Source of the DNA: Laetmonice hystrix
Taxonomy: Eukaryota
Reading direction: 5' to 3'
Length of the DNA stretch: 64,000 bases
NCBI GenBank assembly: GCA_965235115.1
Contig: OZ249436.1
Span: forward strand, 36,830,001-36,894,000
Positions 84 to 49,300 of the stretch are shown piece after piece. Numbering within the stretch: position 1 is the stretch's first letter; each line of letters starts with the position of its first letter. The notes below the pieces were generated by a model. The model ran no database searches, was not told the DNA's origin, and saw nothing but the letters and a program-made list of their open reading frames with translations. Made by a program: the position numbers and the translations under genes.

Positions 84-221
84 TGACGTAGGCCTACGTC
101 TATCGCACCATTTTTACGGACACGTGCTCCCAGCTTTACTATGTACCAGCTCCCGCACATGAATGCCAGCCCCATCCGGGTGACGTACGTCGATGCACCA
201 TTTTGGACGGACATGTGCTCC
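84..221 (+). repeat. Short diverged direct repeat (2 copies, about 45 bp)
   Basis: tgacgtaggcctacgtctatcgcaccatttttacggacacgtgctcc (84-) vs tgacgtacgtcgatgcaccattttggacggacatgtgctcc (181-). Confidence 0.8.
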
Positions 222-3200
222 TTGGTCCCTGCGTTATTTCTTTGAAAGTGTGTTGATGTGGTTTGTAGTACTGAAATTCAGGTTCGGTTCCAATCGAGCT
301 TTTAGCCGTTTCCATGCCATCTCTTCTTGACCCACCCTCTTCATTCTCCGCCATCTTAGTATACTTAGTATCTTCACTCCCTGTTTCGGCTATGTCATTA
401 TTAAGGGCGGATGGTGGGACGTCACAATTACAAAAAAGCTATATTGCCCATTTCATAACATTGATCAAGTATTGAATTAAAACAAAATCCGTGGAGTAAT
501 TTGCCCCGCACTGGATGTTTTAAGTTTCACTGTTACATGTAAAGTAGCGAACTGCCCTGTCCCGTCAGGTATCGCATGATTATTTTATAAAATTGGTCCC
601 TGTCTGTAATATCCTGTGCAGCTGTTTTGCTTCACTTCTTCCGAAGAGAAAGCTGTCCTGTCACACACCGCAGGCTATCAAAATTTAATGACTCCTTGCC
701 CGGCATGTTTTGGGATGAGTGGAGGGGGGGGGGAGTTTGATTCCACTCGAAAAAATATATCCAGTGTTCAAGGGGGCTCGGAAAGAAAATCGAATATCTA
801 GTCCGAAATCTAATGTATGCACTGTCAAAGATCTAGCTGGATGAACTCTGTAGGTTCGTCGTTCTCCCCAAAGCCTAAACCGGCGTATCTTCGTTCAACA
901 TGCGTGAATTTCTGCCATTTATCTCACGTCTAGACTTTTCCCTGATTTCATTTGGTATCTGTGGAAATTAAAGTTGCCGAGACGAAAATCTGCTCTATTT
1001 TGAGTGAATACTGAAATCTGATTGGTTCCTCTACTACCATTTGTTCTCAACGTTGCATTCAATTGAATAAGAAATATTCTAGTGCTCGAAGGAGTACCTC
1101 AACTATTGCCAAAGCATTCACGAATGCCACTCCTCTTTGTCAATTGCTCTAATGGCAGCCCGGTAATTCTAGGAAGTATTATCTGGGGCCTCGTGCAGCT
1201 TCCCTTACTGTCTTATGATAAACGGATAATAAGGTATTCACTGGAAGTAACTTTATACAAGTGAGTCTGTTAGCTCTTATTACGGACGTAATATTACTGC
1301 AGTGCCTTATTAAAAGGAGTAATTCTATAATTCCACATACTAATATTTCACAAAGATTTGCGAACAGAAAAGTTCCCCAGAAGCAGACTCCTTTTGTTCG
1401 TCTACATAACATTAGTGGACGTAAAGGATAGTTTACACCGGTTGGTGTCAATAATAAATCGAGCAAAGAAAAATGGTATGCCGTGCTGCAATGCTGGCCA
1501 AGATCTATAAGGAAGAGCTTTGAGATTCCCGTTCTTTCTATCTACCATAGACTTGGCGTTAATATGACCAGGAACATGCCATGTTTAAGAGAGAACTTTA
1601 AAGGTGTCGTTCATTCCGCACTGTAGAACCTATTCATCTCTTTTCAAAATAAAAATAAAAATATTTGAAAATTTGTTAAACTATTCATGGATTTATCCAA
1701 ATAACATAAATTGGGCCTTTGTCGATATTTTGCGATGGATGATGTAGATTAGGGGAGCGTCCCTGCCATTAACTCGGGAGATCTACGTCTTATGATCAGT
1801 TAATTTTATAGACAATAAGATTTCAACCTTTGTAACTCGGAGCATCATTTGGCCTCGAATTAGCAACTGCGGCAACCGGAGTTTTATACATTTTTCATAT
1901 TCTTAGAACTTGCAATCACGAATCGAATAGAAGTGCCCCCTTTTAATATTTTGTTTTAGCTTGTAACCTTTTCATGTGACAATACAAGCAAAGACAAGTC
2001 CGAGATGGCCCTCTAGTGCCCACCCGATCCGGCCTAGGATACATACATACGGACAGGACCTCAGCACAGCGGAGTCTCAAATATAATGTCAACAATAATG
2101 TCCCCTCCGGCGAATATAGGCAATTTCATATAATAGGATGTGCTAGGAAGTATTGATGTGAATGTTCAGACTACTCCATACTGTTGTAGGCATTATTTTT
2201 CTCATGCATCGTGTTTCCTGTGGCGTCTGGGTACACGTACCAGTAAATTTTTCTCTGGGCTATACAACCTATATGTCACGAATTCTATCAAATTGCAGCG
2301 TGAAAATGTCAAGAACTACATAATAAAAACCTTGTTGTTGGCCTCTTCACGGCGTGAGAATAAACGTCCATCTATTTTCGTATATGTTTAGATACATAAG
2401 GAAACATAATGCTTGAATACGTTTACGATTGTGGAGCAGATGTATTTTGAAAGGTCAGGCGTCAGAGTCGAACAAAGGAGACCGCTCAGTGTACATATGG
2501 CATACGTTGTTCATCACGTGCCTGCTCTGAACGTCTAGAACATGTACGGTATAGGGCTACTTCCAGAGTTTATTGAAACTTCGTATACAGTAAACATAGA
2601 GGGGTTTCTGCTTGAAAGGTTCAAACCAAACATTAAATCCCCTCCCTTGGCAGCTCCACCCCCACCCTTTGACGCCAACCCGGATCTGTCCCCTGGGTTA
2701 TGACAACAATTTATCTATAAGTGCATCGTCAACGTTATGAACGATCAGTTAACAAAATGACCATTTTTCATTAGGTTCTAATAGGTGACTAAACTGAGAT
2801 TAGATCACTTTGAAAACTGTACGTATACACGGCTGTTATGGTGCATTACCAGAATCAGACTACTTAACAACTGTTATAGTGTGAAAGCATGATAAAAACT
2901 CCGAGAGTTATACAAACTTTCGCTTCGAACATGGCTCAAACACCGCTATATTATCTTTGTCCCCCTTCATCAGAGTTTCTGAATTCCTGTTAGAATTGGA
3001 TATTCAAACATCAGTCAAACAAAACCATATTGTTTGTCTTGATCTCACGTTTTTGGAGTAATTAATTCGGTATTCTCCTCTCGATAAAACCACAATGCTT
3101 CGCTGGTTTATAAATGACAATGCAGTCTATAACGCCAAGTTTTAATCAGCATTATTTTAAAGACATAAATGTTCTCGCTGTTATGTGATTACTAACATTA

Positions 3201-5884: not shown

Positions 5885-6355
5885 ACAGACACTCACCCCG
5901 GGGACAATCGCCCCGGAGACAACCGCCTCCCGGACAACACCCCGGGGACTGTAGGACTATATTGTCCCGTAGGAAAATCCCTGGAGGAATATTGCCCAGT
6001 AGGACACTCCTCCCCGTAGGACAGTTACCCCGCAGAATTAGTTGATATTTTTTAAACGGTGAGGATATATTATGCAGGGATTTCAGCTGGTTATTACCGA
6101 CTTACACCGAGGGTTTATACGGTCGGGGTACTCGAGTGGCCGTTACGGGAAGAGACTCGCATATAAAGAAGGGGAGGGAGATGATTGAGCCGTTCAGACG
6201 GCCGGTCTGGTAATATCTATTGAATAATAAACTGTATAGCAGAACGGGGCGATTTCCCTAAGGGGTAATTGCCCTGTGGGATAATAATTCTATGCAGCAA
6301 TAGGCCTAGTCTATGGTACGTGGCGATTGTCCACGGGGTAACTGCCCCAGAATCG
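5885..6355. mobile_element. Non-autonomous TIR element with ~16-bp subterminal GGACAA..CCCC repeats
   Basis: ggacaatcgccccgg-type units at 5890-6035 and inverted ggggcgatt/ggggtaattgccc units at 6245-6350. Confidence 0.6.
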
Positions 6356-11226: not shown

Positions 11227-11425
11227 TGTCTGCAGTGTGGTCTCAAACGAAACACGGCCACTGGACATAAAAATAAAGTAGGCCTGAACGTAATAATTTG
11301 ATTGACTCAGCCGCAGAGCCTCCATGGTAGGTGGCAAACGTCAGTTGTATACATATAAAATGTCTACAGTGCGGTCTCAATCGAAACGCGGCCACTGGAC
11401 ATAAAAATTAAGTGAACGTAATTTA
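11227..11425 (+). repeat. Direct repeat, 2 copies of about 65 bp, 134 bp apart
   Basis: tgtctgcagtgtggtctcaaacgaaacacggccactggacataaaaat (11227) vs tgtctacagtgcggtctcaatcgaaacgcggccactggacataaaaat (11361). Confidence 0.9.
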
Positions 11426-19725: not shown

Positions 19726-20929
19726 ACTATTTATGGCCACAAAAACCTTGAGTCCAAAAGAATAAGATGCAAAAGATAATTCGGCAAGTCGTTAGTTTGG
19801 TCCATCATTACATAGCCTACAGCCTTCCCTAAATGACCTGTCCCATTTACTATGCATTCTATAACGCCTGATCCTATAATTGCAATATGTTTACAGTATG
19901 TGTAGTCTACTGTTCACAATTGTATAAGAAATTATTCTAGTAGAAAAAAGTTAATGTAGGCTATTGGGTACATTCCGTTCTGCCCGAAATCCCATTTCAT
20001 CCCGCAATGCTAGAAGGTAGGCCTACAAAACAAATGGCGGAACTGTCGGCCTGAAGCAAACAGAATGGAAGTCGTTGGATGGACCAGATCCTACATTGTC
20101 TCTATCTTTTTAATCAAGAGGTTGCCGTTATTTTTGTCACCCTGTGAAATTGTAGTAGATCTACGTGACTCTTGCCTTAATGTAGACATTCAATCAGTTG
20201 CATGTCTGAGTTTGCAGTCTCCTCTCTAAAGCACTGTGGCGTTACAGTATGCAGAATGACTTTATTTGGCACTTTTGATATTCGGTTTGTTATAGGCATG
20301 CATCACTGTTGCAGAATACAGCTAAGATTCAGTGGCTGACTAGCACAATAGAGTCTAGAGTGTTGGCAATGAAAAGTACAGGCAACTATCATGACTAATA
20401 AACTTCCGCGCTGTCTCTATATGGTTCGATCAATAGCAGTTTAGCGGAGCGTTGCCATGTCAAAGGTTCTCCCCGCTCAAAGTGGCGACCAAATGTCGGC
20501 CATCTAAAAATTGTCACACCCAGATTTCATAGTTACGCTTCCAATTCGGGAACATTATTTGCGATTGCATGCGGTTCTGTTCGGCACTCCCAAAGTTTTT
20601 GCTTTCATGGGACCAACCTCTCTATATAAAGAATACAGCATCTATAGCTCTATTTTGGTCTATAGACGGGACCGTTTTCTAGTGAAGAGAAGCCAAAGTA
20701 ATTTAAAGTAGTGCCCACATTACAAAAGGACCAATTCAGACAGGACTACTCGGTTGTTGAAACTTATTGCACATCTTGCCGGGGCAAACATTGTCACTAC
20801 CTATCATCTTGGTTACAGCTGTCTTCTTATAGATATCCATATGGACAAGATGGTGGCAGCGCCCCTCCAAATCCACTCTCCTAGTGTTCACAAGGGGCCC
20901 ATTCCTTTGCGTGGAAAGGTCTCTCATGA

Positions 20930-21410: not shown

Positions 21411-22626
21411 ATATTCTTTTTTTAGGTCTTGGATTCGCATTTTAAACCCTATGTAATACATTTTTGCATTGTGCATTCTTATACGCTAATTGTTGTTTAT
21501 CGCGTTTAAAGAAAACAAAAACAACAAACTTAGTACGTTTAGATATATTCTGCAATTTGTTTCAATTGTATTTACTTGGAAATGCAAAAGTGCATAAAGT
21601 TGGTGTTTTTAGTTACAAGTAAATGTCAACAAACATTTGAATAAATAAAATTAAAAAGTAAGAATCCCCCCGACACTCTCAGGCAGTCAGAGATTTAATA
21701 GGCCTAATAGTTCTACACGACAACATGATTGGCCCAGAGAGATTTGTAGGGACATCTCAGGAGCAGGATGCTCTGGGATTAGATGTCTCTACCGGGAAGA
21801 TCATCCTCCCCCGCTCGGGGTTGGCCCGCTTCCAGTGATTCACCCCCTCCCGCCTGCCCGCCTATTCTCAGAAACGCGTAGCTCGCAGCGCCATCTGTTT
21901 TCCACCTTGCTGCGGTACACTGCAGCCCAATCAGATAAACAGCACTGCCTGAGGCGAGATTCATAAAAATCAGCGTGCATGTCTGGTTAGCCAAAAGAAA
22001 CGTCCCCGGCCCAGAGGCCGAGAGCGACAGCCAGCGCCAGTGCTAGCGATCATCCAGACCCTCAGCGGCCCTAGCAGAGGGTCTGGAATCTTTTGTATCT
22101 CCCGGTTGTGAGACTGTTCCGAGACATAAGCGGCTTTCAAAAAGTAGGCTACAGAAATTCTGCATCCGGTCGTCTTGCAGCCGATTGGTTAAATTTAACG
22201 GAAGTCTGCTCATTCTGATCAACGGCTGGTTCTAGCGTTCTAGCGACGTTTTATACAAGCCTCCAACGGCGGCATCATGCATGCACAGACTTCGGTAGGC
22301 CTACCCCGCCTGCAGCCCCGGCCGCCACCTCGGGCTCGGTCACTCCCGCCGGGCTGAGCCTGCAAGTCCGACCTTCCGCAGTCTGCTGCTCAGTGCGGCA
22401 TCTGCCATATTTTCAAGCCTGAGACATCCTCGGTTTAATAGGAAAACCCGTAACTAATATTGGAGCGCTATTGGGCGGAATGTGTGTTTTACATTCTAGT
22501 CTAGAGACGTTTTGCAAGGTCGGCATCATCCCTGCTTGCATGGACTCTGGCGTCCTGCCTGCCTGCCGCCTCGCTCCCCTGCCCCTGGCCCCCACCGGTC
22601 GCTCCCGGCGGGTGAGCCAGTAAGTG

Positions 22627-23416: not shown

Positions 23417-24349
23417 TCTACCCCCGCGGCCCACTGCCCAGCACGGCATAGGGACCTGGATCACTGCCATATTTAATCGGTCACCTACATATAGGCTAGT
23501 AATATGTCGTTTTATAAGCAATTAACTTTATTGTACGAACCATAGAACTTTAGAAACTGAGTAAGATAGTATTAAGGATTTTTCAAATTTCAACTGACAA
23601 TTGACATGCACACATGTGTTAGATCTAGGCCTACACCGCACAATGCAATCAGTCGGCCTATAGGCCTATAGCCAAAATAGGGGGCCTATATATTGAATGA
23701 AGGAATGACGAGTCATATTTTACACATGATGACGACTTTTTCTTAGTGATATAATAAAACGTAGTCTTGTCGAGCAATTTTATCAAGCGAATTTTCGTGA
23801 AGCGAAAAGGTCGGTTGTTTTGTTTTTCTCTGGCCTCCTCGGGCCGCTCATGTTCCTAAACGTTCGACGCGCCACCATGCGGTAACAATGAAAGAACGGA
23901 AATCTCCCAGACTCTCTTCTCTGAGAGTCTGGCGTTACCGAGACTGCGATGACAGGGCCCCGTTGCATATTTTTTTCCCTTAAGGATCACTAAAACCTTT
24001 ACGATCCTTAATTTTTTGCGACTACTAAGGGCCCTACTGACCGTGCCGTTGCATATCAGATACCCCATGTTGTCACAAGGGTTAGCGCTCGCAATGTTAG
24101 AAGTCGCTATCTGCAACGCGCCCAATATTAGCAGTCGTTACACAATCCCCATTAGTGGTCGTAAAAGTACCTGAGAGCAACACCTCACTGCGACACCAGC
24201 TTCTTGAGGCAGTTCCCTAATTAGTCGTCAGGGGGCGGAATGGGTACACCGGACTGGACCTTGTATGTTGCTTTATGTCAACAATTGTCCATGTTCGTCA
24301 CAGCCGGTCTTTTATGAGTTGTAAAATAACACATAAAAATACATACAGA

Positions 24350-25345
24350 CATTTTGTAAGCCTGTTGACCCATAGGCTACACGACGAAGATTGATATGGA
24401 GAGCGCATTGTGGAACCTGTCAAATTTGACCAGGATAATTGGAAGAGATCTACTTCAAAATCGTACATTTATGTGAGATGTGACGTGTGACCCAGTCCTT
24501 ACGAAGGTCAAAAGTCATCAGTAAAATATTGGTAAAAAATGTACTAATTAGGAACCAGCCCACATATTTTAGTTGCATTCAGTTGTGTGGTCAGAGCCCT
24601 TTAAATAGTGAAACTTCTAGGTCACGTAACTTAGATCTATATCAACAAATCTATACCAAATTGGGCTAAACCCCATGTGCAGTGTATGGGAACTCATTGG
24701 AAGGAGTATTCTCCCTGGGTTAGCGGTCAGCTGTGGGGATGGTTTTCAGAATAATTTGTAGTTCAATAATATTGTGTGCTAAAATTTGGGTCAACATCCC
24801 ACTTGCTTTAAAAGCAAAACTAGTTTCTGTTAAAAACCGCGAGAGATATGATTGATTTCTGGCGAAAGGGCCACAGAGCCCCTCTTTTAGGTCCTATGAG
24901 TGACCATCAAATTGAAAAATATATATATATATAGCTGAATAGTTTTACTAAAAATGTAAATTTGCATTTGGACGTTTACAATACGAAAAGTATCTGATAA
25001 AAAATACTTTTTCATAGTGGGATTCGAACCCATGATAAACAGCCTGTATGACGGGTATGCTACACATTTAGCTATTGAGACTCACAACGAAAGCGTTTGC
25101 ATTTTGACGTTAAGAATACGAAAAAATTCAGAAAAAAAATTTCAACCGTTAGTGGGATTCGAACCAATGATGTCCAGCTTTCCGGTCGGGTGTGTTACCC
25201 ACCCAGCTATTGAGACACACAGACCTACAAGTACGAAGGTCCTATCTAGAATAGATGAATGACGTCATGACGCGAAAAAGTCACGTTACAGGAGAAACTT
25301 TTCATAAATTTGGCTTATCATCCTACCCTATAATAGGGTAGGCTA
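24350..25345 (+). mobile_element. Possible Helentron-associated (HINE-like) interspersed element
   Basis: Short subterminal inverted repeat taagcc/ggctta and a 3' hairpin cctaccctat-a-atagggtagg (25322-25342). Confidence 0.4.
25017..25216 (-). other. Two tandem tRNA-derived segments (Pol III A/B-box-like)
   Basis: Minus strand: tctcaatagctgggtgg...ggttcgaatcccact and tctcaatagctaaatgtg...gggttcgaatcccact, about 135 bp apart; no convincing cloverleaf. Confidence 0.6.
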
Positions 25346-25928
25346 TATAATAAGATAATATAAGAGAAATGTACTGTGTGTCTTGACACATGTACATAGG
25401 CAGCAGTGACACCTTACGATCACAGCTGTCAAATTTACCTGTGAGAGAAAGTCTGTCATTTTGTCTATAGGCCTATCGGTCAACAACTAACAACCGATAA
25501 GGATTGTTAAAATGATCGAAAGTGTTGCACAGATTTAGCAGTCACTAAAATCAGAGTGTTGCATAAGAAAGAGGTCACAAATAGTGGTCCTTATAGGCGT
25601 TGCACAAAGTAGCGCTCCTTAAGCGAGGTCTTTCTGTAGGATCGCTAAACCGCCTAACAGTTGCTAAAATGGTTGCTAGAGGCCTCCGATAAGGCCCACC
25701 TAAAAGGTGCGCGCTAAAGGCTGGAAGAGTGGAGTGTCTCATCTACCTGGAGCCTATACGAGTGGCATAATGGGGTATACGTTGTATTTATGGGTCGAAC
25801 TCTTTGTAGCATGTATAATGCAAGTCCAGATACTAAATTAACTCATAAAGGATGGTCAATTTATAGTAGAATGGGGGAGAAGCTAAGAAATTAGGTTATA
25901 GCAAAAATACCGCCGTTAAAATCGTTTG

Positions 25929-26129: not shown

Positions 26130-26779
26130 GTTTGTTCACTGATAACAAAGGATAACATGGAGCTAACAAGGATAAAGCTGGCCACACAGATGGTTGTGAA
26201 AAGAAAGCTATTCCAGGGATCGTATAGGCCTATGTGTGAGTCACTGGTTAGACACTGATCACCGTAACGCGCGTTACGCTGATCATAAATGGAGGATCTC
26301 GATACTCGCTTCGCGTGTTTTTGTCCCTTTTGCAAGGGTTACTCTGCATCAACAACATCAGGACAACGTCTAAATACCATGATAACAGCGTAGACTGCCG
26401 TTTGTCTTATTTCAGGGTCCTAGCAGGGCTTAAATTAAGAGAAAATGGATGCGGCAATGATACCCGTAACGCCAATTTAACACCAATTTAAGTTGGTGAA
26501 ATAATAGACGGTGAATACTTCGACTTATCATTTCAAACTTGTTTGATTTTTTGTTTAAATTTGCATAAGCCTTAGGGCCTAAAAGGAATTGTACCTAGGG
26601 CTAGGCCTACACCTTTTTTAACATCTGCGCCTTTATAGGCCATCCTTCAATATAAAACTATGATATAACATAAATATGGGTCCTCTTTGTTGTCAATGCA
26701 GAGAAATGCTTGAACTACACTAGTTTTAGTTGAAGCGAGACTTGCCTTCCTTCATCTCGGATCGGCGTAACGCGCGTAA

Positions 26780-27037: not shown

Positions 27038-29832
27038 TTACGGTGATCAGTGTCATAACCAGTCATTGTGCCGTTGTTGTCTCAACTTGATTGACAGATC
27101 TATAACAAACCACTCTAAAAAAAATTGCGCACTTTGAAAAATATGTTCAAAATGCGTTAAATGTTGAACCACCTCAACGCACTTTGAAAAGAAAATTGAA
27201 AGTGCGTTGACGTGGACCCAATTCTTAACGGACTTTGAACAATGTTTAAGGGCGTAATTTCAAAGTGGGGTTGTTACACATGCACCTTGGCAACAATAGT
27301 TTAGAGCCGGAGTGAAGGGTGGAAGGCCATTTGGGACTGACAAAAAGTGGTCACAATGCGGAGTGGTCTTATTAGAAGTGCCCGCTATTGTGGGGTTTTG
27401 ACAAACATTAAATAGATAAATACATTTGAAAAACATTAAATAAAAAAACGGGACTCAGCCAAACTGGCCGTAATTAAGGGTTGACCTGTAGCTCATCTAT
27501 AAATATTACTGGCGATTGCTCGTAACAGACAGGAACACGATCTATCCTTCGATACAGGCTATATAGACTTTGTGTAGGAGATGAGGGGTATTCCTACATG
27601 AATTCAAGCCTTCTGTATAAACTGTGACATCTGGCTTAGACATTTGTGTGGCAATTGGGGAAATATATACTAAAATATAATAAAATATAATGTCAGCCTT
27701 TTGCAAAAAATCATTAAAATACTTTGAATTAACACTGAAAGTACTTTATTATTATGTTATTTTACGACTCATAAAAGACTGGCTTTGGTGAACATGGACA
27801 AATGTTGACATGAAGCAACATACAAGGCCAAGTCCGGTCTACCCATTCCGCCCCCTGACGACTAATTAGGGAACTGCCTCAAGAAGCTGGTGTCGCAGTA
27901 AGGTGTTGCTCTCAGGTACTTTTACGACCACTAATGGGGATTGTGTAACGACTGCTAATATTGGGCGCGTTGCAGATAGCGACTTCTAACATTGCGAGCG
28001 CTAACCTTTGTGACAACATGGGGTATCTGATATGCAACGGCACGGTCAGTAGGGCCCTTAGTAGTCGCAAAAAAATAAGGATCGTAAAGGTTTTTGGTGA
28101 TCCTTAAGGGGAAAAAATATGCAACAGTGCCGGGAACTGCCTCAAGAAGCTCGTGTTGCAGTGAGGTGCTGCTCTCAGGTACTTTTACGACCACTAATGG
28201 GAATTGTGTAACGACTGGTAATATTGGGCGCGTTGCAGATAGCGACTTCTAACATTGCGAGCGCTAACCTAGTCGCAAAAAATAAGGATCGTAAAGGTTT
28301 TAGTGATCCTTAAGGGGGAAAATATGCAATGGCGCCCTGGTAGATGAGACACACTCCACTCTTCCACTCTTCTCCACTCCACCTTTTTGGTGGGCCTTAG
28401 CGGAGGGCTCTAGCAACCATTTTAGGAACTGTTAGGCGGTTCAGCGATAGTACAGAGAGACCCCCTTAATGAGCGCTACTTTGTGCAACACCTATAAAGA
28501 CCACTATTTGCGACCTCTTTTTTATGCAACACTCTGATTTTAGTGACTGCTAAATCTGTAATATGCAACGCTTTCGAACATTTTAACGATCCTTATCGGC
28601 CGGTTCTTGAATATGCAACGGGGCCCAGGGGAGCTAAACTTTGGAATTTCGCGTGTTAAACCACCAAGTCAGAGTGCTACAAACTGTATTGTTAGGGATT
28701 ACACATTTGTTTATCAGCGAACTGGGCAAGGCTATCAGGCATTTTTGCGAGAAGTAAGCCTTCGGTGAGGACCGTTAGTGCGGGTGGAGCGACGATGACA
28801 GGTCCTATTAATATTCATAAGGTTGACTTCGGGGTCAACTTCTGCCCTGTTAGCATGGGCTGGGCTCAAGGGGTAGAATGCAGGATGCGCGATGCCCCTT
28901 GACAACTCAAGATGCCGGGTAGATATGCCAAGTGTGAATGTTTAGGGTAAGCTCATTGCCATGGGCGTCAATCCAAAATGGCGGAATCTACAGCGGTTGA
29001 TCGTGATACGGAAGCAATATAGTGTGTGGTCTATAGCAACAAAATCATCTTCAGAAGTGGGTAGAGTGGAGAGGCGATGTGTAGCGTCTCGTGTGACAGT
29101 ACATTTGTAGGCCTACTTTATTCACTGGCAGGCATTTCTTGAGGGGCAGCGTGTGTATGTTTTCCACGAAATCATTGACCCCGAGAAGCCGACCTAACGT
29201 CGAGTAACGGTAGTTAGTCATTACGACTATTTTACCTGCTTACTAACTTAGGTCTAGACTAGTCAAATACTTTCTGAGTCTTCTAATATAATATTTACGA
29301 ATCTCGGCTCGCTCTCTTCTGTGCTGATAATGGACTAAGGTAATTAAGACTTTCTAATGTCCGCGGACCATGTTGACCTGCTGGTAATGGCAGCGTTTGT
29401 GTTGCGACTAATGTAATGGGTTGTGTACACAATTCGTAGTGCTTCATGGGATAGCTGGGTGGGCGGAATTCACTTTTAAGACTGCAGGCCTGATGACACG
29501 ATATTCAGTGGTATTTTACAGGTAGGGGCATTTATTTTGGGGCCATCTACGCTATCTCGTAGGAAGTGCCCCTTTAATATATTTCTGAGAAGATTATAAT
29601 CCAGCACTACCCCAGACCCAGGCTGATGACATCAGAATGAAACTTAAAGGCAAAGTCCAGTCAAAAATCATATTGGGACAGCTGCAAGGCCTCTATATTA
29701 TATATAATCACCTTTCAGAGTAGTGGTTGGAAATAAATGTCCCCCCCCCCCCCATTCCAAGAAGTCATAATGTCGAACATGACAACCGTGTCAAAATCAC
29801 TGGCTTCAGCGGCGCAGCCATTTGTGGGGCTG

Positions 29833-30415
29833 TGTTCCGGCTAGATACGTACGAACGGCTAGTCATGTCCGATAGGAGATATGTCCGCAAACACCAGCTA
29901 GATGAGTCCGAAGAAATGGATATGTCCGCAAATATCAGCTAGATGTGTCCGGTACCGGACATATCTGGCTGACATTTGCGGACATATCCGGATTACCGGA
30001 CATATCTTGCTGACATATGCGGACATATCCAGATTACCGGACACATCCAGCTGGGGAACTACCTACTAGTCCGGGGGTCCACTAGTCCGAGGGTTCACTA
30101 GTCCGAGGTTGGCAGTAGGCAATGGCAAGGGAACATGAGGCAAATAGGGAGCTAACTTCAGGGGGCCGTTAGTCCGACAGCCCAATGGTGCGACAGACCA
30201 ATCCCCTATGTTGCCCACTTCGGAATGGTGAACCCTCGGACTAGTGAACCCTACCCTCTAGCTGATATTTGCGGACATATCCGGATTACCGGACACATCT
30301 GGCTGATATTTGCGGACATACATGTATACCGATTACCGGACATATCTAGCTGATATTTTCGGACATTATATCCTCTCGGACATAACTAGCCGTTGGGGCA
30401 TATCTAGCCGGAACA
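29833..30415. mobile_element. TGT..ACA TIR element with internal ~39-bp tandem units
   Basis: GGCTG|TGTTCCGGCTAGATA ... TATCTAGCCGGAACA|GGATG; repeats of gctgatatttgcggacatatccggattaccggacatatct. Confidence 0.85.
30054..30256. mobile_element. GGG..CCC MITE with 15-bp CACTAGTCCGA subrepeats, nested in 29833-30415
   Basis: 8-bp duplication TCCAGCTG/TCTAGCTG of host sequence; ctagtccg units at the left end and inverted cggactag at the right end. Confidence 0.8.
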
Positions 30416-31771
30416 GGATGGCCGAAAGTAATTGCCGTCATTGTGCCGGCTGTTGAGCATGCGCTGAATTCACAGCTATGTTAATACTGCCAGAATCTAT
30501 TTTAACGTGTGCGGGGCACGGGAAATGTTTGACCTGCTCAGACTCACCCGCTTTTCATCATTATTGCTGGTCCCGGAAGATTTCAATCTCTCTCGTACTT
30601 AGCTATACACAGGCTATACATTGTCTGATAGTATAATGAGAATTCGATGCAAATGTATGCTTGATTAGGGACGATGTTTGAGTAAACAAAGGATTCGGAT
30701 AACTTTTGTTTCCTACGCCGTCCGTGTCATGTAACTCGTCAGCCCAACCTTTATATTACAGCTACAGCGTGGATCCGATATCTTCTGTTCTAACCGGTTC
30801 TGCTATATAGTTACCATATTATATCAGGGATATAACAACTGAGGCTGCCATTCGTATCTACAGTATCCAATAGTGACATTGATACTTAGTCTCTATACAG
30901 AATGCCAAACATGATCCCTGGAAGCAGAAACCGCCTATGGTTCGACGACATCCGGATGCAATAAATAATCTGAGCTTACTGTGGTGGGGCAAAGTATCTG
31001 GTATGAGAAAACTTTGATGGATAAGGCCAACTTGACGGTGGCCCCGGAGACTTCATAACGCTTCATATTATGTGATACGGTAGGATAAAAATAACATGAC
31101 AGCTTGATTAGACCTACCCAAATGAACCCAATGCATCTGGATAGGCAAAAAAATTGTTCCTGTTAAAATGGTACCTGTTATGCCTGACTGGCAAGGGACT
31201 TGTCTCTAGGGCAACCAAAGAAAGGCCTTGACAACAAACACAAGTAAAGGCGCTCTTTCAGCTGTATTCATGATAAACTGTTTTCACAATAGTTTGGGCG
31301 GCAACTGTAATTATGACCCATGGAGGCCCTTACAACAATCTTAAATGTCGGCGAGTTTGGCAGTGCCATACCTTATTCTTGGCAAGTGACGTCACACGTT
31401 TATATTCCATTGAACCTGTACAGCGAAATGATGAAATAATGCATACGACCTTAGTGTTGGGAGGACATGACTTCAAACACAGTTTGAGTTATCGTGGTAT
31501 ATATATTACTGACCTATATATATTCATGTACTTAGACGATCGATGCATGATACGATTAGGCCTATGCTAAGCATGGCTATGTGGCGTAAAGCTGGGCTTC
31601 AGCTGCCACACCTACAAGCACAGATCGAGGGTCACCAGCTTGAAACTGTACAGCCTGTGGCCATAAGGGCTACAAAATAAAAGGCGACATTTGGATTTCA
31701 AGGGTAAGCCTAGATGCATACCAAAATGGCGTCCTTTGACGACAAGTGTGAGCCTCCCTGCCGATGCGGCC

Positions 31772-37283: not shown

Positions 37284-37402
37284 AGTATAGTATCCCTCCA
37301 ACGGTTCATGTATATTTAATATGCAAAAACCATTTAACATATTAAATGTGTGAAATGGTTTTTGTATATTAAATACATGGTCCGTTGGAGGGATACTATA
37401 CT
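37284..37402. repeat. Near-perfect 119-bp palindrome (hairpin MITE)
   Basis: agtatagtatccctccaacgg...aaaaaccattt / aaatggttttt...ccgttggagggatactatact. Confidence 0.92.
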
Positions 37403-40400
37403 CTTCAAAACCTCCGCCTGCTCCGTTCGACACCTAATTTTGCTGACCTCCTGTAGCCAGCAGATGCCGTACTCCACGGCAATCCAAACAGATGTGTATG
37501 GATCAGGTCCTTACGGTGTTGTAGATCAATACTAACATATTCGATGCTTAACGTAGACGTTCATGTCAGTACTCCGACACCAGACTTTAATGCTGGTCGG
37601 ATCGCCAACATCACTGAGAGAGATGTAAGCTGGGCCCAGCTGGGTGAAACATCACCCAACTGTCAGCAGCCCGACCCTTCAAATCCCTGCCTGAATTAAA
37701 CATTAAAAACACCCAGGACGGCTGCAACGAAGTGTATCTACAATCCAACTATGATCCTGTACTTTGTTTCATATATGTGTTATATTTTCTACATGTTTAT
37801 ATTACTTTGATAATGTATAGGTGTGAACTTCTGCTTAGGCCCCTATATACCAGTGTAGGCCTAATATATAATGTTAAAGACAATTGACATCACAACAAGT
37901 TTTCTATGGATGTCACAGCTCAGTATAAACGCGGTTTCCAATGGAAACGTTATGTAGATTTAAATAAAAATACATGCTCCCATTGTTGGGGGGGGGGGGT
38001 GAATTTCAAGGAGGATCTAAGTCAAAAAAGAAGAAGAATATTAGTGCTGACCCCTTTGACAGAAACCAAAAGAGAATACAACTTGGGAGGTGTTTCATAA
38101 TGAAATAGGCCTAAATAATGAAAGAAAGAAAGATTGGAAAGAAAGAGAAACCCCTTTATACTGAATGGTCAACGTTGGTGTCCCCCCCCCCCGCAAAGCA
38201 AACAACAACAAAAAGTAACCTATTAAATATTACTTTGGATTGTGGGAATGCATGGGGGATAAATTACTGTAAGGGTAGGATGTTATATAGAGTGGGTGAT
38301 GAATTCGAAACTGTTTGACGTCAGGCCTTAAAGATAGGCAAACTGAAGTATATAAATCAACCGACAATAAAATACTATCTCAGTTGTAATCCTTATCCCG
38401 AACATTATCTATCTGCGTGTCCATCTTAAACCCTTGAGGTGACCACTATATATCATTGTTATCAGTACCACTATATTACAGTTAGAATCTTTATGGACGT
38501 AGGCGTGTGGCGCCACACTTGTCACGAACAAGGAAGTGCCATATAGGATCCGAAATGATAATTTAGTACCTTTGATAGCAAAGAATCGGTCCAAGTTTGC
38601 TCCACGTGGGCGCCTTGGGTTGGCTTCAATCGTGCCGCATTCAAGAGTGCGACTCTAGCGACATCTAGCGATGATGAACGAGGGGACCATTGCTATCGGT
38701 CTATTTACAACATAACATGAAGCAATGAGCACTGGACACCGGTGGTTTGGGAGTGGTATCCACACGAGGCGGTAGCCGGTCCGCGTCCGACGCCAAAGCG
38801 TCGGCCAATTTGGCATGGGCGCCAGCCGCACAGGCATGGGTACCGTAAATTGGTAGCATGATTTTATTGTACGGTCATCGCTCATACAAATACAACAACG
38901 GGGATATGTTATACCTCAGGGGTAATAACATAACGTCATTGACAGCGGTCACAAGTTTACATGCTCCAGGGTAATCTACCAAGGACGTCACATGATAATG
39001 GCGTAAATACCCCATCTCTTGTCGCACTAGTTTTCATTGAGAATCAATCAATGGTGTTCTGTCACTTAGTTATTGGCTTACAGGCATCCGGGGTTGAGAG
39101 ACATTGTTGCGTTCCTTCTGATAGATTTGTTAAAAAGTCGGTTGACCTTATTAAATTTAACTACATCTTTCCAAAGACAGTTTTAAATATTAATATGTTA
39201 TAGTCAGTGAAAGATGGAAATGGAAATAAAAGGTCAGAAGGTGACAATGATTCAACCGCCATGGGATATCTGGCTAACAAATGCACTTGGAGACAACCTC
39301 TTCAATCCTTGGACTTCTATCAGAGAAGCCTTTACTCCTTTTGCTCCCTTTAGAGGACTACATCAACAGCGCACTCTGCAGGCACCTGACGCTTGGAACA
39401 CAGAAAATTGACCATCAATATTATGATTGTGATTGAATAGTGTAAAAGGAGACTGGAGTAAAAAAATGCTTGGTCCATTCATTATTATTGTCAGATCTGT
39501 TCCCCTTGGGAGATCTGGGTTGTTTGGTCTTGGAATATTCAAGGTAGGCACTGGCCATTTATATTCCCTCCAGTAAGTACAGCGAGAAGTTTTAAGAATA
39601 AGCAGGTGGGAACAGAAAACTGCATGATTGGAGTGGGAAAGGAACGTTTCGCTATCTTGTCCTAAAACTCCGGTCTAAGCCAAGAGGCGGCGGTGGTCCT
39701 CATCCCTTTCATCAGTAACAGCATAGCGTCTCGTCTGCCATGTGAAGGTCGTCCTATTAGAGTCAGAGGGGCGAGTCCCCACGTCCCCAAAACCACCAGG
39801 GATCAACCGAATTGCGCTGGCAGTCCATCTATCCCCACGCAATCTGCCGCCAATGTTCAGCATTAGGCGACATCATACAGAGAAAACCAGGAGGAGGGGG
39901 AGGGGGGTTGGTGGTAACGTTAGCGGTCCTTGGAGACGGGTGTTACGGCGAACACGTGACGGTTGCCGTGTCGTCTGCTCGACAAGAAACAGATCCCCCG
40001 AGGTTTCCGAGCCGACAGACGTTCCGCTTCATTTTCCAAAAAGGGGGCTTACCGTCTCGAATCACTCTATCTCGCTTGTAGTGGATTGATCTAATTGTAC
40101 GACGCATGAGGGCCGCACAGCGAGTCATAATTACTCCCAGGTTGGTTGACTAAAACTCCATTACAAAACCCCGCATCAAGGGTCCGAATCATTCTGTGCA
40201 TGGGGGCGTTATATATAGACTGGGTGATAAATTCGAAACCGTTGGCGTCGGGCATTAATGAGGCACATGAAGGATACCCATCAACCAGCAAAAATAATAT
40301 CTCAATTGTAACCCTGATATTTATTATTAATGATGGTATTAATCGTTGGTCTGGTAATAATGGTCACCTTCCTGAGAAAACAAACCATGAAGATGTAAAC

Positions 40401-41122: not shown

Positions 41123-41124
<2 letters not shown>

Positions 41125-42714
41125 GGTGGTGTTACTACAAGCATGACGTACCATTCCCCCCAGAAACCCCCATCCCCGAGCCTTGTATTCATATCATAAT
41201 GAATACAAGCCATGCAACTTGCTAACACACCCTCTTGGGTGTACGAGCATGATTAAACTTTCACATCAAAACTTTTGTGAAATACTACAGGACTCTGAGG
41301 ACAATTAAACTTGATAGAATTACCTTAGTATTCTAGTGCACTTAATGTTACAATCGAGTTGTCGGCATTTTCCGTTTTCATCACAGTTAAATTTAATTAG
41401 CCGTACTACATGCAGAGAAGTCGCAGCATGTTGAGACCGGGTGAAAACCAGCCAGCCAGTTTGAGACATGCACACGTTTACAAAGTGTGATCATAAATAA
41501 CGATCTTTAAAAAAGTGGAGTAATCCTTCAGGCCTTTACTCTATAAAACTGTTCTTTCTTTCTTTTCGGTTAATTAATAACATTTCTAATTTATTATTGA
41601 CGTGCGATAATATCCGTTTAGAAAACTATACTGTCAGGGCTGTAGCCTGCGGGGGGGGGGGGGGGGGGGGGGGCAAAGGGGCAACTGCCCCCTGCCCTCT
41701 GGGATTTTCAGTTTTTAAATTATTATTGGGCCTGGATCCCCAACCTTGATACTGGGATTGACACCACTGGTACTTGCTCTGGAGGCACTGCCCCCCGTCC
41801 CCCTAGGTTTGAGCCAGACTACGGCAATGCGTGTGAAAACACAGAACATTGTAGGATGGGTGAAAATAATTAATAACTACTGTCATTCCATTCAGAAATT
41901 TGTAAGTTTCCTTAAAATTTCCATTTATGCCCCAATAATGCAGCATTTTTTCGCAAAGTGTCTCCTGGAACTTGGAATGAATAGAAAGCGAGACACAGTG
42001 AGAGAGAGGTGGTAATTTTACGCCGTATCGGCAGCCAATGCCATCTTCACGGAAAAAAACAAGGTGCAGTCAGAAAAAGACCCGGGACCTATTGTCTCCC
42101 GGGTAGGGGGGAAAAACTCGCACAGCGACACCCAACGTGTCAGATGCGAAATATGACTGATGAAAAATAGTAAGCGTACCGCACAAAATACCGCACACGT
42201 GCACCCCGTCACATCGATCAATTATCGACCCAAGTGCACGTAAGGCATACTAACAGCCTCACTAAATATGTTTATATGAAAATGTAGAACGCCATGAGAT
42301 CATAAACCACTTGATCATCGTATAGGATGATGAAAAGATGGAATGGAAACCAATTCGATCTAGGCCTAAATCTATAACTGAAAAATACAAGAACCGGAAA
42401 CATCCGTTATGTGTTTAAACTCGAACAGTTACTCAGTCACGTGAGAATGATTTCAGTAAAATTATGACACTTAAAATAACGGGTCATATTAATACATTTC
42501 AGGGAGTTTTTCCCCAGTGGATGATGGCACCAAGCATCTGAAGAAGCAGCTGAAGGGAATGAATGGAAGTTACTTTTGTTTATTGATTGACAAAGCGAAC
42601 TGGAAATCAGGTACCAGGTAAGGTTATCTTGGTGGCAAGCTGACAGATTGTAATCTTGGTGGCAAGCTGACAAAAATTATTGCTATCCATCCCGGAATGT
42701 AACTCTGTAAAGAA

Positions 42715-43200: not shown

Positions 43201-43439
43201 CATAAAATGATTTTCGGCCACCTGCATTCATCGTACAAAATGTACGACGTCGCTTCATCATGGTTTACAGCAGACATCCCAATAACATTTCCCAATAAAT
43301 CATGGCTATGTCAATTAGAAGTTTAGCCCTACACCGCGAGTGAACTCGTTTGTTTGCACCAGCAAGAATTTATGGAGCCCCAGAGTGGCGACGTTGTTGC
43401 CACTGCACGCACAACACTTTTATATCGACTTAGCTTATA

Positions 43440-43455
43440 TACAGGGTGTCCCCGA
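43440..43455 (+). mobile_element. Possible solitary Tc1/mariner-type terminus
   Basis: TA|CAGGGTGTCCC; no partner end found. Confidence 0.3.
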
Positions 43456-46112
43456 AGAGAGAGAGAGAAACAGAGGGAGCTGAGAGAAAGAACTCCTCCA
43501 AAAGTAGCCGTCGCTATTGGATGAATTCAACAAATGTCATACTCATACGTGTCAACATGGTTTGGCGGTGTAAAAGACTATTTGATTGTGTGACCCAGCC
43601 GACAGCATCTCCCGTGTTTCCTGATTGGTGGTCATGCTGCCGGTGATACTTCCGCAACCACTTCAAAATCACATCATCAACTCAAACAAATACAACATTG
43701 TCGGCTGGTTGAATATCTGTCTAATGACAAGGAAATAAGCTGGAACACAACCTTCTAGTAGTGTTTCCCATGTAGCACAACGAAAAAAAGAAGTCTCAGT
43801 ATGGCCATTTCCCATATCGGCAATCCTACTATTTTCCACCTTGACGGTCTGAGATGGCCTTCCTTTACGACGTTGTAAAAAAGAGATCACAAATCAATAT
43901 GTTGCCACTCTTTACCGAGTCCGACTTCCAAGTGAATTTACAGTGCTGCCAATAGCTCTCCACAACGAAATCTTTCCTAGCTGACTTTTTTTTGCCAGAA
44001 TGACAGTACGACGGCCATCAGAGCAGTTAATAGGTTGGGAACGGCAGCTGGAGTCCAAGGGAGCGTTAAATATCTGTCCTGGCGAACTCAGCAGGATGTG
44101 TTTGAACCTGTGTATGACCTTAGAAACAGTACGTCGCTACACGTTCTTCACTATGTCAGTCATGGCAGGCGTATTTTATTGTTCAACATTTACATAAGAT
44201 AGAGAACGCTGTCCCGTATGCGGGTCATCTTTGGGTGATAGACAAAAAGCGAGCGCTATATGTACAAGAAGATCGGGTCGGGTTCATGTAGGCCTATTAT
44301 GTTCTGCGAAACTTACCGAAGTGACGTGACCTTCCGCACTTTCGAGGTAGCTACTTATGCTAACTAAAATACTCCCGTTGTGTTTAATGCTGTTCTTTCT
44401 GCTAACCTGCCAGGTACTTTTCTTTCAGAGACTGACGCTTTTCTTGATTCCCTGCATTTGATGCCCCTTGGGGCCTCTTTTTCCGCTATCCTTTATTTGA
44501 TTTAATTACACCATAACACTTATTACGCGTATGGTCATACGTCTCCGATCATTGCCTCCAGCTGTTTCAAGACGTTGCACAAAGTTTAGTTTTCGGAACA
44601 CAGTTTCGGTGATGAGGTATTCCGCACAAACTGATACGTCGGAGGCAGTTATTCAAGCCGAAGAGATAATAGAGGGAGATGTATGAGCTACTAGAGATGG
44701 CGAACTACAAGGGAACTCATCTAACCCCCAGTCACATGGTTATCAATGCAACGACACATTGAGCAACCGCCTAGCCTTCAGTCTTATTCTCTCCCCTTAA
44801 AAAGCTCCGCATAATAGATGATATCTGCGCCGACCCAGCCTTTCCTTGACATGGTTCATTCGGATGAGGAAAGATAATTGATAGAATTACACCCATATTC
44901 ATCAGATGGCATGAGAGGATATTATAATAGGGCGTATCAATGAGTTATTGTGCCAATGTCAGAACCCTATCGCTGTCTCGGATAAGATCCCAGACAGAAC
45001 ACATCCAGAAATGGCTGAACCTTTGGCTGGCTTGTGGATTCCAATATGAGATATACTGATGCGGGCAGTTCATGGTCGACGGTAACATGCGCCCAACCCC
45101 GTCCAACCCATCAGGGTCTTTAATATGAATCCCTGATTCGCTGTCCTGCCGATTTTCTATTACGGCCTGGGGAAATTCACTGCAGGAAGCAGGCTCATAT
45201 TATTGAAGCGACCTGCGCGCAAATCGGAACTGAAAACGGTCTCATATTTTAAATTCCTTAATGGGTCTGGCAGATCAAGTGGCGGTTCGCATTGCCTGGC
45301 TAACACCTGTGTCCTGTCATTCCAGTCACTATACCACGTTCAAGATCATGTTTATTTCTCTGCGGCTTCTCTTACAACGTAGGAAGCCTTTCATTTTATT
45401 TTGATGGTGCCTCAGCCACCGTAAAGCCACACCAGTTGTAGGATGACACGATATAACATATTCCCGACCCTGCCTTATAATATCTTAGCACGCACATGCA
45501 TGCGCTTGGGAGTATAGCGGGCCATTATACCATCTAAAAAGGTGCGCGCTTATTAGCATAATGGGCATAAGGCCCACGTACATTATACAACCGGGTCCTG
45601 CAAGGTCTTTTCAAGGATTCCGTATTCAATATTTATACCCTACCAGGACACGAGTATTTCGATATTCTTGATGTTTTTGGGTGTGAAATAAATCCTATGA
45701 ACGGAATAGTGTCTACTACCGTCGACAGAGGGTGAGAAATATTCATGTAACTCGGGCCTCTTATCTCAGGTAAGCAGAGACGTAATAGAAACGCCATGGT
45801 ACGTCTTATTCTGTGGCTGAAACATCACACCGATTCCTTCACAGCAGCGAATACGTATTATTGACCGCGTTAAATTCCTTGAAAATGACTTCCATCCATA
45901 ACAAATGGCCGTACTTATTTTCCAGCAGTGTGCTTACATTGAGAATGCATTTAGTGGGCGAGATTGTATGCCATATATTTCCTTGGCTTCCACCCTCTGG
46001 AATATTATAACGACACACACTGTCTATAGACCTCGCCCAGCTAATGCATTATCCACTAGATACCTGCCCTTACAAGAATGTGATGGAAAGGAAGAAAGAA
46101 AGGGAAAGGAAA

Positions 46113-46366
46113 CGGTGGCGGATCCAGGATTTCAGGAAGGGGGAGGGGGGGGGGGGGGCTTTTGGTGGATAATCGGTGGCCCACTATTAGGGTCTCCCCT
46201 AGGAATTTGTGTTGAGTAACGCCGGAGACGTGTTTTCTGAACATATACAATAGAAATTTCTCACAAATCTTTCAACGGAATTCCATTATTTTTATGTATG
46301 AAACATAGAAAATAGGCGAAAGTTTGGAAAATAGAGGGAGGCGAGTGCCCCCTGAATCCGCCACTG
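46113..46366. mobile_element. CAGTGGCGGATCCAGG-type MITE
   Basis: cggtggcggatccagg / cctgaatccgccactg; flanks ggaaa / cgaaa. Confidence 0.75.
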
Positions 46367-49300
46367 CGAAAGAAAGAAAGAAAGAAAGAAAGAACAAAGA
46401 GACACCCCCGGTGATATCATTTGCGGTCAGATTGAGCCAAGCTGTGTCGGGGTCAGGTCCCGTCCGTGTAACCCTGGACGGCGCGTTACGCCAGAATGGT
46501 GGACTGTACATATCTGTGTTGTAACTTACTATAGATGATGAGACAAGTAACCTTAGGCAAGATACATTAGCAGCCTCGAAGCAATTCCCTTCCCGGAGTT
46601 ACCATGGTTCCCACGCAAAAAGTGGTGCACAGCAGGATGCAAGGGGCAGTTTCATAAATGTTCCATTCCCTAAAATTGAAAATAATGGAAGGAAGTTTTT
46701 CAGTGATCCCTAGAGGCGAAGCAAGCAGTGATGCTCTCCACTGACCCACGGCCTCGGCCTGATTTTGACACAGAATACACTGTTGTACTAAAATACAAGC
46801 CCACCCTTCTCTATCTTGACTAAATTGCCATACGATAAAGCGAAGAACTTCAAAGTTGCCTGACATCCATTCCGGGTGACTTCAAAGGGCAATACAATTT
46901 GCTCAAATTCTATGTGGTTGCGGAAAAGTAGCAATTTGTGGTGTAACTCTGCCAGTCACACACCGCTTTACGCGCACGATTGACTATTTTTACGCAGTAT
47001 AAATAAAGGAACTTAAAAAAACCGGCCAACTTTCTTCCTCGGGAAACTGAAGCACAAATCGGCCAGTTCATAAAGTCGGACGACAATCGAAACCTTCCAG
47101 CCCTTAAAAGTGGCACCTGCTCGTAAAAAGGGCACTTTTTGCAACGCAAGGTACGGCCCTGAGAACGTCAGCCTCGATCTTTTATTATTCGATGCCACGT
47201 GTCCTCCCTGTTGGTCGCATAACCGAATACTTGCTTGGAATACGCGATTTTTTAATTTGCACACCAGGGGACGTCTTCAAACCGGGTGCTTGGTTTCTGG
47301 GGGACGTTTGTCCTCCTGGGCATGGTTACCGTATCCGCGGTGATCGAATTCCTAAGGTGACTGACCTACATAACGAGGAGCTAGCTCTCTCTTGTGGTGC
47401 TTGTCCCCAGGGGAGGAAGCTGTCATTTGGACCACTTGTTACAATGTCGTTGAAATAGAAGCAGCCAATTTAACCGGATGGTCGCCTGCTCCGCGGCCAG
47501 TTTTATTAGCTCCAACGAGGAAAACGTGTGACGTTCTTCTGTGATGCGCGATCAAATATTAACGACATCGAACGGTTGAGTGTGAAAGTAATGCGAGTGT
47601 GACGGACAGGTAAGAAGGGTCGACTCGTAATGAGTGACCAGGAAACCCCAGAGGTACATAGGATGATCCCAACTCCGTACCGTGTGACATGGGGTGAAAG
47701 GAAAAGGCTGCAACCTTTCAGGCCACCCGGGATGGGGACAGATTTCCCGACTTTGAAATGGCATTTGGGGAATCCGGGGCACTTAATCTCTACTTCTGCC
47801 TGAGCCTCCATCGCTCTGATGTTCGTAAGAGGTGATGAATGGGGCGAAGTCATTCGGGAATCCTCGGCCATATCTTCGAAAGTAGCCTCGGGTGAAATAG
47901 GCGCAATTTTGAGCATTGCATCGCGGGTACATTTAACCGGGACTCTCGTCAGCATGGCAGTGCTTGCAGTATTTTGCCTGTATCAGGCATGGAAGCAACT
48001 AATTAGGCCTCTAGTGTTTTTCCCAAAGTCAATGGGCAATATTACGATAGTATCATGTTCATGATACAAGTAGTCCTACCATGTGTCGTGGTGTTGTCGT
48101 ACATGGGCGCGGTCATATTGCTTCCCATAATTTGATAAATTACCGTATCACGCCCGTTTAGGTAAATTAGGTGATTCATTTTCTTCTTCAAACGTTCCCC
48201 TTCATACCAGAAATTTATATTTGCACATACAACGCCGAAGGAGCAGGTGTCAATAATGCACTCCTTCCTGGCTCTATGGGATATGACGGTTCACTCAGTG
48301 CCTCGCTACACACCTTCATTTGGCCATGTATCCGGTTGCCAAACATGGCCACTAATCCATCCGAAGGTATATTCGAATAGCAGGAAGTGACGTCATCTGC
48401 CCGAGGGCGTCCCGAATGGGGCGAAGTATGGTACGAGTAACCGGTCGAGCTTTAGAAGTGCAGAATCGGGCGGCACAGATCGGGTTGCGGCCTCCCGTGA
48501 CCTCTCTGATTTGCCCTCGTTATTGCTCCACATCTGGGCCGCCAAAGCTTGGAATGCCCAGCCCTGTCCGTTCGACTCGGCTTACAAAGACTTGCCATTT
48601 TTTCGAAACGGTGGGGATGTCTTTGCAGTGACGGATTGAAAGCGAACTGGTTAACGCCCAGCTGTTTCCAGCGACTCACTCCGTGGTGTCAACGCTGGTC
48701 CAAGGTTAGGGATAAACTCGTATGTGGGTCGAATTTTGGTCACACACGACACACTTTCAACAACCAATCAGCTTTCATTCATCCTGTTGTCAGGCATGGC
48801 CGATTCAGAATCACACCAGAACACGTTCACATTCCACCCAATCTCTGACTGAACCGTTCTGGAGGTTGTTTCTCATAGAAATTACCGTTCACGATGCATG
48901 CCAAAAGAGTGAATATTTCTGAAGTTACAGCTCGTTGTCCCCTCATTCGGAACACCGAGCCCTTTACGATGTAGAGAGACTCGGATACCAATCGGAGGTC
49001 GCCATATTGGGTCAGATGGGGTCAGCGCACTACTGTCGTAGCGTCCCATGTAAACAACAATGGCAGCCACTCGCCAGTGTCTGGGCTGTGGTGCTGTCAG
49101 TAGACGGCTTTCTTCGTTAGTTGGCAAAAAAACTGAAACCGAATTTGTCACGGATTGTAGCCTTTCTTGACAATGACATTAGCCATGAAAACGTGGCCTA
49201 TTCCTTATTTAGCATGTATGATCCGTGCGATAAGAGGATCGAATCAAGGTAGCCAGTCAATTCATGTCAAACCGTTAGGCCTACACGTCACACCCGTTTT

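Follow-up and report, generated by a model that had tools for sequence, protein, structure and literature searches.

A TA-flanked palindrome in the genome of Laetmonice hystrix and GG-ended pogo elements as its probable source

When a transposase of the Tc1/mariner type excises its element, the cut on the non-transferred strand falls a few bases within it; after end-joining, some of the element's terminal bases remain between two TA dinucleotides (PMC6943129, PMC2874221; these and the other papers are cited for the portions of their text that were available). Such footprints take the form TACAGTA or TACTGTA for Sleeping Beauty (PMC6943129) and taCATGta for Tc1 (as cited in PMC3520976). Most of what is known of them comes from assays and from the reversion of mutants, and in C. 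elegans they have been called rare. Because excision normally goes unseen, there are few good measurements of how often it happens in nature, of which targets were used in the past or of what becomes of cut-and-paste elements. The subject of this report is the palindrome TAGGCCTA, which is abundant in the genome of Laetmonice hystrix, and a clade of GG-ended pogo elements that probably gave rise to it. The palindrome was noticed in a 64-kb stretch of contig OZ249436.1 (assembly GCA_965235115.1; C1:36,830,001-36,894,000, hereafter the window), where the original prediction read it as the excision scar of a TA-targeting cut-and-paste family with GG..CC ends.

Other described systems bear on this reading. 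The transposase of Passer, a pogo element, leaves footprints of 0-4 bp in a cell-culture assay (PMC9976928). In rice, DNA transposon excisions are heterogeneous, and mariner insertions exceed excisions by about 2.6-2.8 to 1 (PMC4423477). Fot-like elements are given only outside animals in the consulted portions of PMC7386202, where two oomycete entries (from supplements that were searched in part) have GGGTA ends and TAA duplications. In Phytophthora, a footprint origin of the word TACATGTA was rejected because the word is abundant (PMC3520976).

Abundance and polarity of the palindrome

TAGGCCTA occurs 17 times in the window, where an order-2 Markov model predicts 0.69 occurrences. The original prediction had given a count of at least 17, with about one expected, at coordinates that are all exact, and the unrelated contexts it described are borne out by the flanks, which have nothing in common among the 17 sites (best flank identity 25/60). 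No match in any other fetched locus was found for 15 of the 17 sites (fetched loci are numbered with L below). The genome of 627 Mb contains 168,757 copies of TAGGCCTA versus 3,469 of a reversed-word control, which contains CpG. Seventy random 10-kb loci hold 204 copies where 11.9 are expected. Masking of tandem repeats removes 42 of these 204 and leaves 162 versus 7.4 expected, a 21.9-fold excess that is spread over 49 of the 70 loci and thus survives the check for repeat families. Satellites do multiply the palindrome, as in a satellite of 860 bp found at the beginning of C1 (C1:19565-90405) and also in L007 and L045; there, one GGCCTA insertion has been homogenised across whole arrays, and other arrays are without it. 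Stacked scars, for example TAGGCCTAGGCCTA, are densely clustered in L095, L131 and L137, a sign that insertion and excision may have recurred at particular places.

When the 16 possible palindromes of the form TA-XY-Y'X'-TA are ranked by enrichment in the masked random loci, the GG type (21.9-fold) is followed by the GA (7.3-fold), CA (5.6-fold) and CC types (3.0-fold), and then by GT (2.5-fold) and TA (2.3-fold). The GA-type palindrome, TAGATCTA, occurs 37,955 times genome-wide versus 9,864 for its control, and the G-run variant TAGGGCCTA is enriched 4.7-fold. The 7-mers TAGGCTA and TAGCCTA had also been described as common. They are so in the window (21 versus 4.8 expected), but in masked random DNA the excess is only 1.9-fold (88 versus 46), and not every copy in the window is a scar. 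Seven of the 13 TAGCCTA copies fall within the CTGCAATATTTCATAG repeat at 22635-23417 and 42714-43211, and the copy at 4570 is a substitution variant that is not scar-like, its paralogs being about equal in length. Three positions given for these 7-mers were off by one and should read 6806, 23492 and 56682. The CTGCAATATTTCATAG repeat family, which is found at other loci too, is palindromic, with internal tandem periods of 66, 83 and 95 bp.

Insertion at a TA, as had been claimed, is supported alike by indel clusters, by contigs from sequencing runs and by copies of a miniature inverted-repeat transposable element (MITE). All-against-all alignments of the fetched DNA, which comprised random loci and loci chosen for transposases, gave 2,069 indels of 4-10 bases that fall into 864 clusters. 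TAGGCCTA is the top class among the 6-base indels (15 of 198 clusters), with nine insertions, no deletions and six clusters left unpolarised by majority rule. TAGCCTA heads the 5-base indels (7 of 137 clusters; four insertions, one deletion, two unpolarised) and TAGGCCCTA the 7-base indels (4 of 100 clusters). The predicted excess of GGCCTA and GCCTA among indels of 6 and 5 bp was therefore found, and the filled state is the minority and derived one. Where the insertion is missing from an allele or paralog there is one TA, and where it is present there are two; GGCCTA insertions lie inside young transposon copies (L090, L176); and the inserted GGCC is not templated by the flanking sequence. 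The filled state is also recurrent, as the MITE copies that carry scars are not monophyletic.

Contigs X1, X2 and X3 were obtained from three public DNA runs, all labelled as one sample. A first comparison with these contigs was dominated by repeats, with 12 of 168 indel rows listed. Both TAGGCCTA sites within 33025-40900 are exactly 6 bases shorter in the run contigs. The site at 37856..37863 lacks the 6 bases in X1, X2 and X3; this gap has a 22-base overhang on one side and is supported by the loose ends of the next contigs. At 38106..38113 the 6 bases are missing in X1 and X3, with no cover in X2, and the contigs around this gap are 3.1 kb long and diverge from the window sequence by about 0.5-1%. 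Whether the run contigs come from different individuals or from the second haplotype, the polymorphism at 37856 and 38106 is allelic. TAGGCCTA is thus real, derived and partly polymorphic, and it is very probably a transposon excision scar.

A GG-ended pogo clade as candidate donor

Comparison of pairs of DDE_1 loci revealed ordinary CAGT-ended families as well as families that end in TA-GG...CC-TA, which is the kind of element the original prediction had called for. A protein search gave 107 matches to the GG-ended pogo clade, and the 39 loci fetched around clade transposases contain 17 complete GG-ended elements of 2.3-5.0 kb with TA on both sides. The rest comprise two GA-ended elements, one CC-ended element, one whose ends are doubtful (L134, which was used in the flank test described below and excluded from the count of 17) and others that are partial or lack an end pair. 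Paralogous empty sites of the elements in L145, L151, L136, L165 and L168 are a single TA. Non-autonomous copies of 0.6-0.8 kb exist in the clade, and homologs occur widely, among them named proteins of insects and barnacles. Within the window a donor element is absent, as had been stated: blastn with 13 elements gave no match.

The transposases of the clade possess HTH_psq, HTH_Tnp_Tc5 and DDE_1 domains. The DNA-binding domains were found on L119, L115, L137 and L147; neither HTH_psq nor HTH_Tnp_Tc5 was among the domain matches on L117 and L131. The catalytic motif is DD35D in nine and DD36D in four of 14 GG-, GA- and CC-ended elements, the remaining one being too short. A C-terminal Cys/His cluster looks PHD-like; PF00628 was detected on a few homologs and not on these proteins. 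In L117:3497-5881 and L119:3087-5870, long and variable tandem peptide repeats lie between the DDE domain and this cluster. L119 and L120 are 99.9% identical and have a 927-residue frame, which indicates that the family is young.

The ends of the elements parallel the scars in several respects. The pogo end types found in the genome are GG, GA, CA and CC, the same dinucleotides as in the four most enriched palindromes. In a transposase tree that took in elements of this genome only, the GA-ended elements nest inside the GG clade, so that the GG and GA scars are matched by GG and GA ends within one pogo clade. Insertions of other end types were verified against paralogs in the window: TAGATCTA at 24632..24639, a likely scar of a GA-ended sister family, where a paralog is 6 bases shorter, and TACATGTA at 30319..30326, a likely scar of a CA-ended element, where the 6 bases are missing at 10 paralogous positions. 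The GG-clade ends are G-runs (GGGG, GGGT, GGTA), and among sister copies of one family the terminal run varies from 2 to 4. Of the ends proposed originally the GG...CC part thus stood; the GGC form and its 3-base scars did not, and the 7-mers are best read as repair products one base short. We had ourselves considered GGC ends cut with an overhang of 3 bases and gave this up, since none of the pogo ends has C as its third base.

Scar and element can be compared at a single site, a TA in a 529-bp, TTAA-flanked host MITE in which the L151 element sits. At this TA, 1,415 copies of the MITE are empty and 24 have short inserts, and one copy, among 85 non-standard continuations listed, recognisably holds a GG element. 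The inserts are GGCC in nine copies, GCC in three, GGC and GGCCC in two each, and GGGCC, CC and G in one each, for a total of 19 of 24 that consist of G and C only; the others are CATG (one), a bare second TA (one) and three of other kinds. The nine GGCC hosts are about 9% apart on average and interleaved with hosts of other scars (20 of the 24 were fetched), so that these are independent events. The empty copies in this host tree are biased to young ones, as the whole-MITE search gave the best-matching, scar-free copies. With 19 per 1,415 empty copies, the frequency of G/C scars at this TA is comparable in order of magnitude to that of point changes in the adjacent base. Scars outnumber resident elements by about 19 to 1 at this site and by more than 100 to 1 genome-wide.

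Flanking sequence and proximity may also link the two. A purine precedes the TA in 29 of 36 half-sites of elements and 249 of 340 of scars, and in this respect the elements differ from all TA (p 6e-6) and not from scars (p 0.07). Within 200 bases of GG elements there are 14 scars in 6.8 kb, compared with 1 in 4.8 kb beside CA elements and 0.29 per kb in random DNA. Taken together, the features of the elements and of the scars indicate that the GG-ended pogo clade, a member of the IS630-Tc1-mariner group, is probably the donor.

Several observations weigh against this attribution. The clade is rare for so many scars: its end pattern occurs 1,297 times genome-wide versus 658 for the control, and TA-GG...CC-TA ends of the clade were found in none of the 70 random loci. 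The donor survey covered pogo and ISL2EU-type families, and Tc1/mariner families (DDE_3, Transposase_1) lie outside it. The flank test discriminates weakly: CA-ended elements fit the scar profile as well (log likelihood ratio 3.5 versus 8.2), and no significant effect is seen at position -2 in the elements. Half of the scar excess beside GG elements comes from one locus. The L151 element does not group with the scarred MITE copies and so is not their ancestor; no scar was traced to a specific element-bearing ancestor. Moreover, the scars are not all young, as two in the window are common to other runs: the site at 29108..29115 is unchanged in X1 and X3 contigs that are gapless over 29038-29469, and that at 31557..31564 is crossed without a 6-base gap by X1 (gapless over 31402-31797) and X3.

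A pathway by which the clade could produce the scars may be proposed. The element enters a TA, favouring R-TA-Y, and duplicates it, as is seen from the elements and their empty sites. By analogy with Tc1/mariner chemistry, one strand would then be cut at the edge of the element and the other 2 bases inside, so that the left TA would keep GG and the right TA would keep CC. End-joining in the germline would fill in and ligate these overhangs to give TA-GG-CC-TA, and loss or gain of a base at this step could yield TAGGCTA, TAGCCTA, TAGGGCCTA and TAGGCCCTA. If the inward cut slipped along the G-run, TAGGGCCTA and a copy one G shorter would result, which would account for ends with 2, 3 or 4 terminal G. 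The counts would mean that most insertions left again or were purged and that the 6-base scar persists; some scars were later multiplied within satellites. Each scar provides a further TA as a potential target, in agreement with the stacked forms, TAGATCTAGGCCTA at 23620 among them. The excess of scars over elements could have more than one cause: frequent germline re-excision with end-joining, the purging of long inserts and a long stay of many subfamilies may each have a share in it.

Other sources of the palindrome and further sites in the window

Most scars could instead derive from another GG-ended, TA-duplicating family, be it a Tc1/mariner lineage, a further family of MITEs or an element now extinct; the pogo clade would then have contributed little. 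The low copy number of the pogo clade is compatible with such a source, and there are short TA-GG inverted-repeat candidates without family assignment, at L034:8410-8802 (12-bp repeats) and L023:6782-9185 (about 23/30 matches). The domain searches scored 150 of 216 DDE_1 and 150 of 232 HTH_Tnp_4 candidates; because of this partial scoring, and with Tc1/mariner outside the survey, another family retains some probability. It is nevertheless unlikely, given that about 1 Mb of DNA shows no high-copy TA-GG boundary, that the pair of GG and GA scars matches the GG and GA ends of one pogo clade, and that the G-run variants of the scar match the G-run ends of pogo elements. Direct searches for TA-GG...CC-TA elements, which took in the window and some 0.7-1 Mb of DNA from fetched loci, gave no high-copy family.

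A second candidate source is the ISL2EU (PHIS) family with ends in ...GGCC followed by TAT. ISL2EU ends usually start with GG, according to the available text of PMC4482050. The elements at L255 and L256 carry, besides a DDE_Tnp_4 transposase, a YqaJ gene; they have GGCC ends, with TA next in 8 of the 10 listed ends. Their empty sites, however, have 4 and 3 extra bases rather than 2, which corresponds to AGGCC...GGCCT ends, an AT duplication and a +8 scar at TATA. Scars exist at GTAC; the two flanks of a scar vary independently, A...T pairs being about as frequent as expected (26 versus 25); the TATAGGCCTATA context accounts for only 9 of 179 scars and the full ISL2EU target context for 113 of the 168,757 words; and GGCC-type ends of this family have only 10 matches genome-wide. 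As a source of the bulk of the scars ISL2EU is largely refuted and very improbable, and it may explain a small share such as TAGGCCTA at 23661..23668, which lies in a CTATAGGCCTATAG context and could alternatively be an ISL2EU-type +8 scar. The elements themselves (L255:2477-9700 and L256:2024-9705) are young, with copies 99% alike, a CTATAG-like target and about 10 end matches genome-wide. A wider search for an ISL2EU-type donor, in which 17 multi-copy families were compared pairwise, was also unsuccessful: the clear ends lie at AAT/ATT, several families have no resolvable ends, and the one with GGCC ends failed the empty-site test. L089, L091/L243, L099 and L095 hold several ISL2EU-type families, also young, that measure 6-9 kb and are bounded by AATAG.../...CTATT.

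A process without a transposon, such as a repair or replication error that uses a fixed template or an endonuclease, might add GGCC and a TA at a TA; the uniformity of the scar and its number in relation to resident elements, both unusual, speak for it. Such a process is highly doubtful, in that GGCC has no template in the flanks and both the spectrum of inserts at one site and the ranking of palindromes track transposon ends; no repair pathway is known to write a fixed GGCC. Least credible of all is that a few repeat families, a selected protein-binding site or an ancestral TAGGCCTA reduced to TA by deletion underlies the abundance, a view that satellite amplification and the 42 copies lost on masking might favour and that is refuted as an origin, with later co-option of single sites being possible, by the excess in masked DNA, the 0 of 15 clusters polarised as deletions, the 9 filled versus 1,415 empty copies of one MITE and the insertions inside young transposons.

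The remaining TAGGCCTA sites in the window are mostly likely scars. At 89..96 one paralog is 6 bases shorter. There is no homolog for comparison at 6301..6308, 20018..20025, 21699..21706, 22296..22303, 25468..25475, 26225..26232, 42361..42368 and 44289..44296. The likely scar at 26602..26609 has the variant TAGGGCCTA close by at 26573. TAGGCCTA at 23626..23633 overlaps the TAGATCTA that begins before it at 23620, and this stacked form is likely a GA-type scar that was hit again at its second TA. For 49276..49283 there are two diverged paralogs, from which its state cannot be interpreted. A likely decayed scar, TAGGCCTG, lies at 11279..11286, where the adjoining paralog at 11361-11422 is six bases shorter.

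The window also contains several repeats. An inverted-repeat element at 29833-30415, found in L009 and L042 as well, has a nested 205-bp insert at 30053-30259; its copy in L009 has GGCCTA insertions at two different TAs. The segments 52410-54656 and 60795-63103 form an inverted pair, 93% alike, of an element of about 2.3 kb with 150-bp terminal inverted repeats. These terminal repeats are composed of a 19/41-bp tandem unit, the interior has a CT microsatellite, and TACGCCCTG is present at two of the four ends. One inverted-repeat element, whose ends resemble CAGGGCCCCGTTGCATA, is present as rearranged segments at 23953-24341, 25494-25750 and 27747-28599, with a tandem duplication among them. 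An open frame at 9567-9902 (+) resembles a fragment of the reverse transcriptase of a long interspersed element.

Significance and comparison with described systems

A stereotyped scar with about 170,000 copies, many of them still polymorphic, makes quantities countable that excision otherwise conceals, and would make the genome a large natural record of past jumps. The copy number of a family can understate its mutational impact a hundredfold. Scars are also a source of k-mer bias that motif finders may take for regulatory sites, and the intact transposases of this poorly catalogued pogo clade are candidate tools. The broadest interpretation, towards which the balance tips only slightly, is that a low-copy, diverse and still active animal clade of GG-ended pogo elements has visited and left about 1% of the preferred TA sites in hit-and-run fashion. 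A fixed 6-base scar would then be the leading small insertion other than slippage, and some published protein-binding "motifs", such as TACATGTA in Phytophthora, may be scars. If this is true, TA-XY-Y'X'-TA palindromes could be read in any genome as a ledger of past activity for each end type.

The elements are like Fot and Fot-like elements (Gao et al. 2020, PMC7386202, as far as its available text goes) in their DDE_1 domain with DD35D (in some, DD36D), their HTH_psq domain together with HTH_Tnp_Tc5, their TA duplication and their size of 2.3-5.0 kb. They differ from the Fot-like elements given there in their animal host, their variable G-run ends and their C-terminal Cys/His cluster, and from the two oomycete entries in duplicating TA. 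The clade resembles Fot-like elements in domains and, as regards the oomycete entries, in ends; its tree comprised this genome's elements only. Passer provides another case of pogo footprints, as described in the text seen, from a different family and with no genome-wide record.

The literature search, which did not extend to subscription papers, Repbase or Dfam, gave no report of this scar or of genome-scale footprints among the matches listed. Like Tc1/mariner footprints, the scar keeps both TA with terminal bases of the element between them and has shorter variants; its 2+2 form is that of the Tc1 footprint taCATGta, which is itself enriched in this genome. It differs in having GG and CC rather than CA and TG, in amounting to about 170,000 germline events and in being the top 6-bp indel here. 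The rice census likewise reads natural excisions from the comparison of genomes; in the portion of that study consulted, insertions prevail and excisions are heterogeneous, whereas in L. hystrix one stereotyped scar exceeds the resident elements by at least 19 to 1, on a time scale that differs from that in rice. Excision footprints as such are already known; the scale on which they occur in this genome, and their probable donor, have no counterpart in the literature searched.

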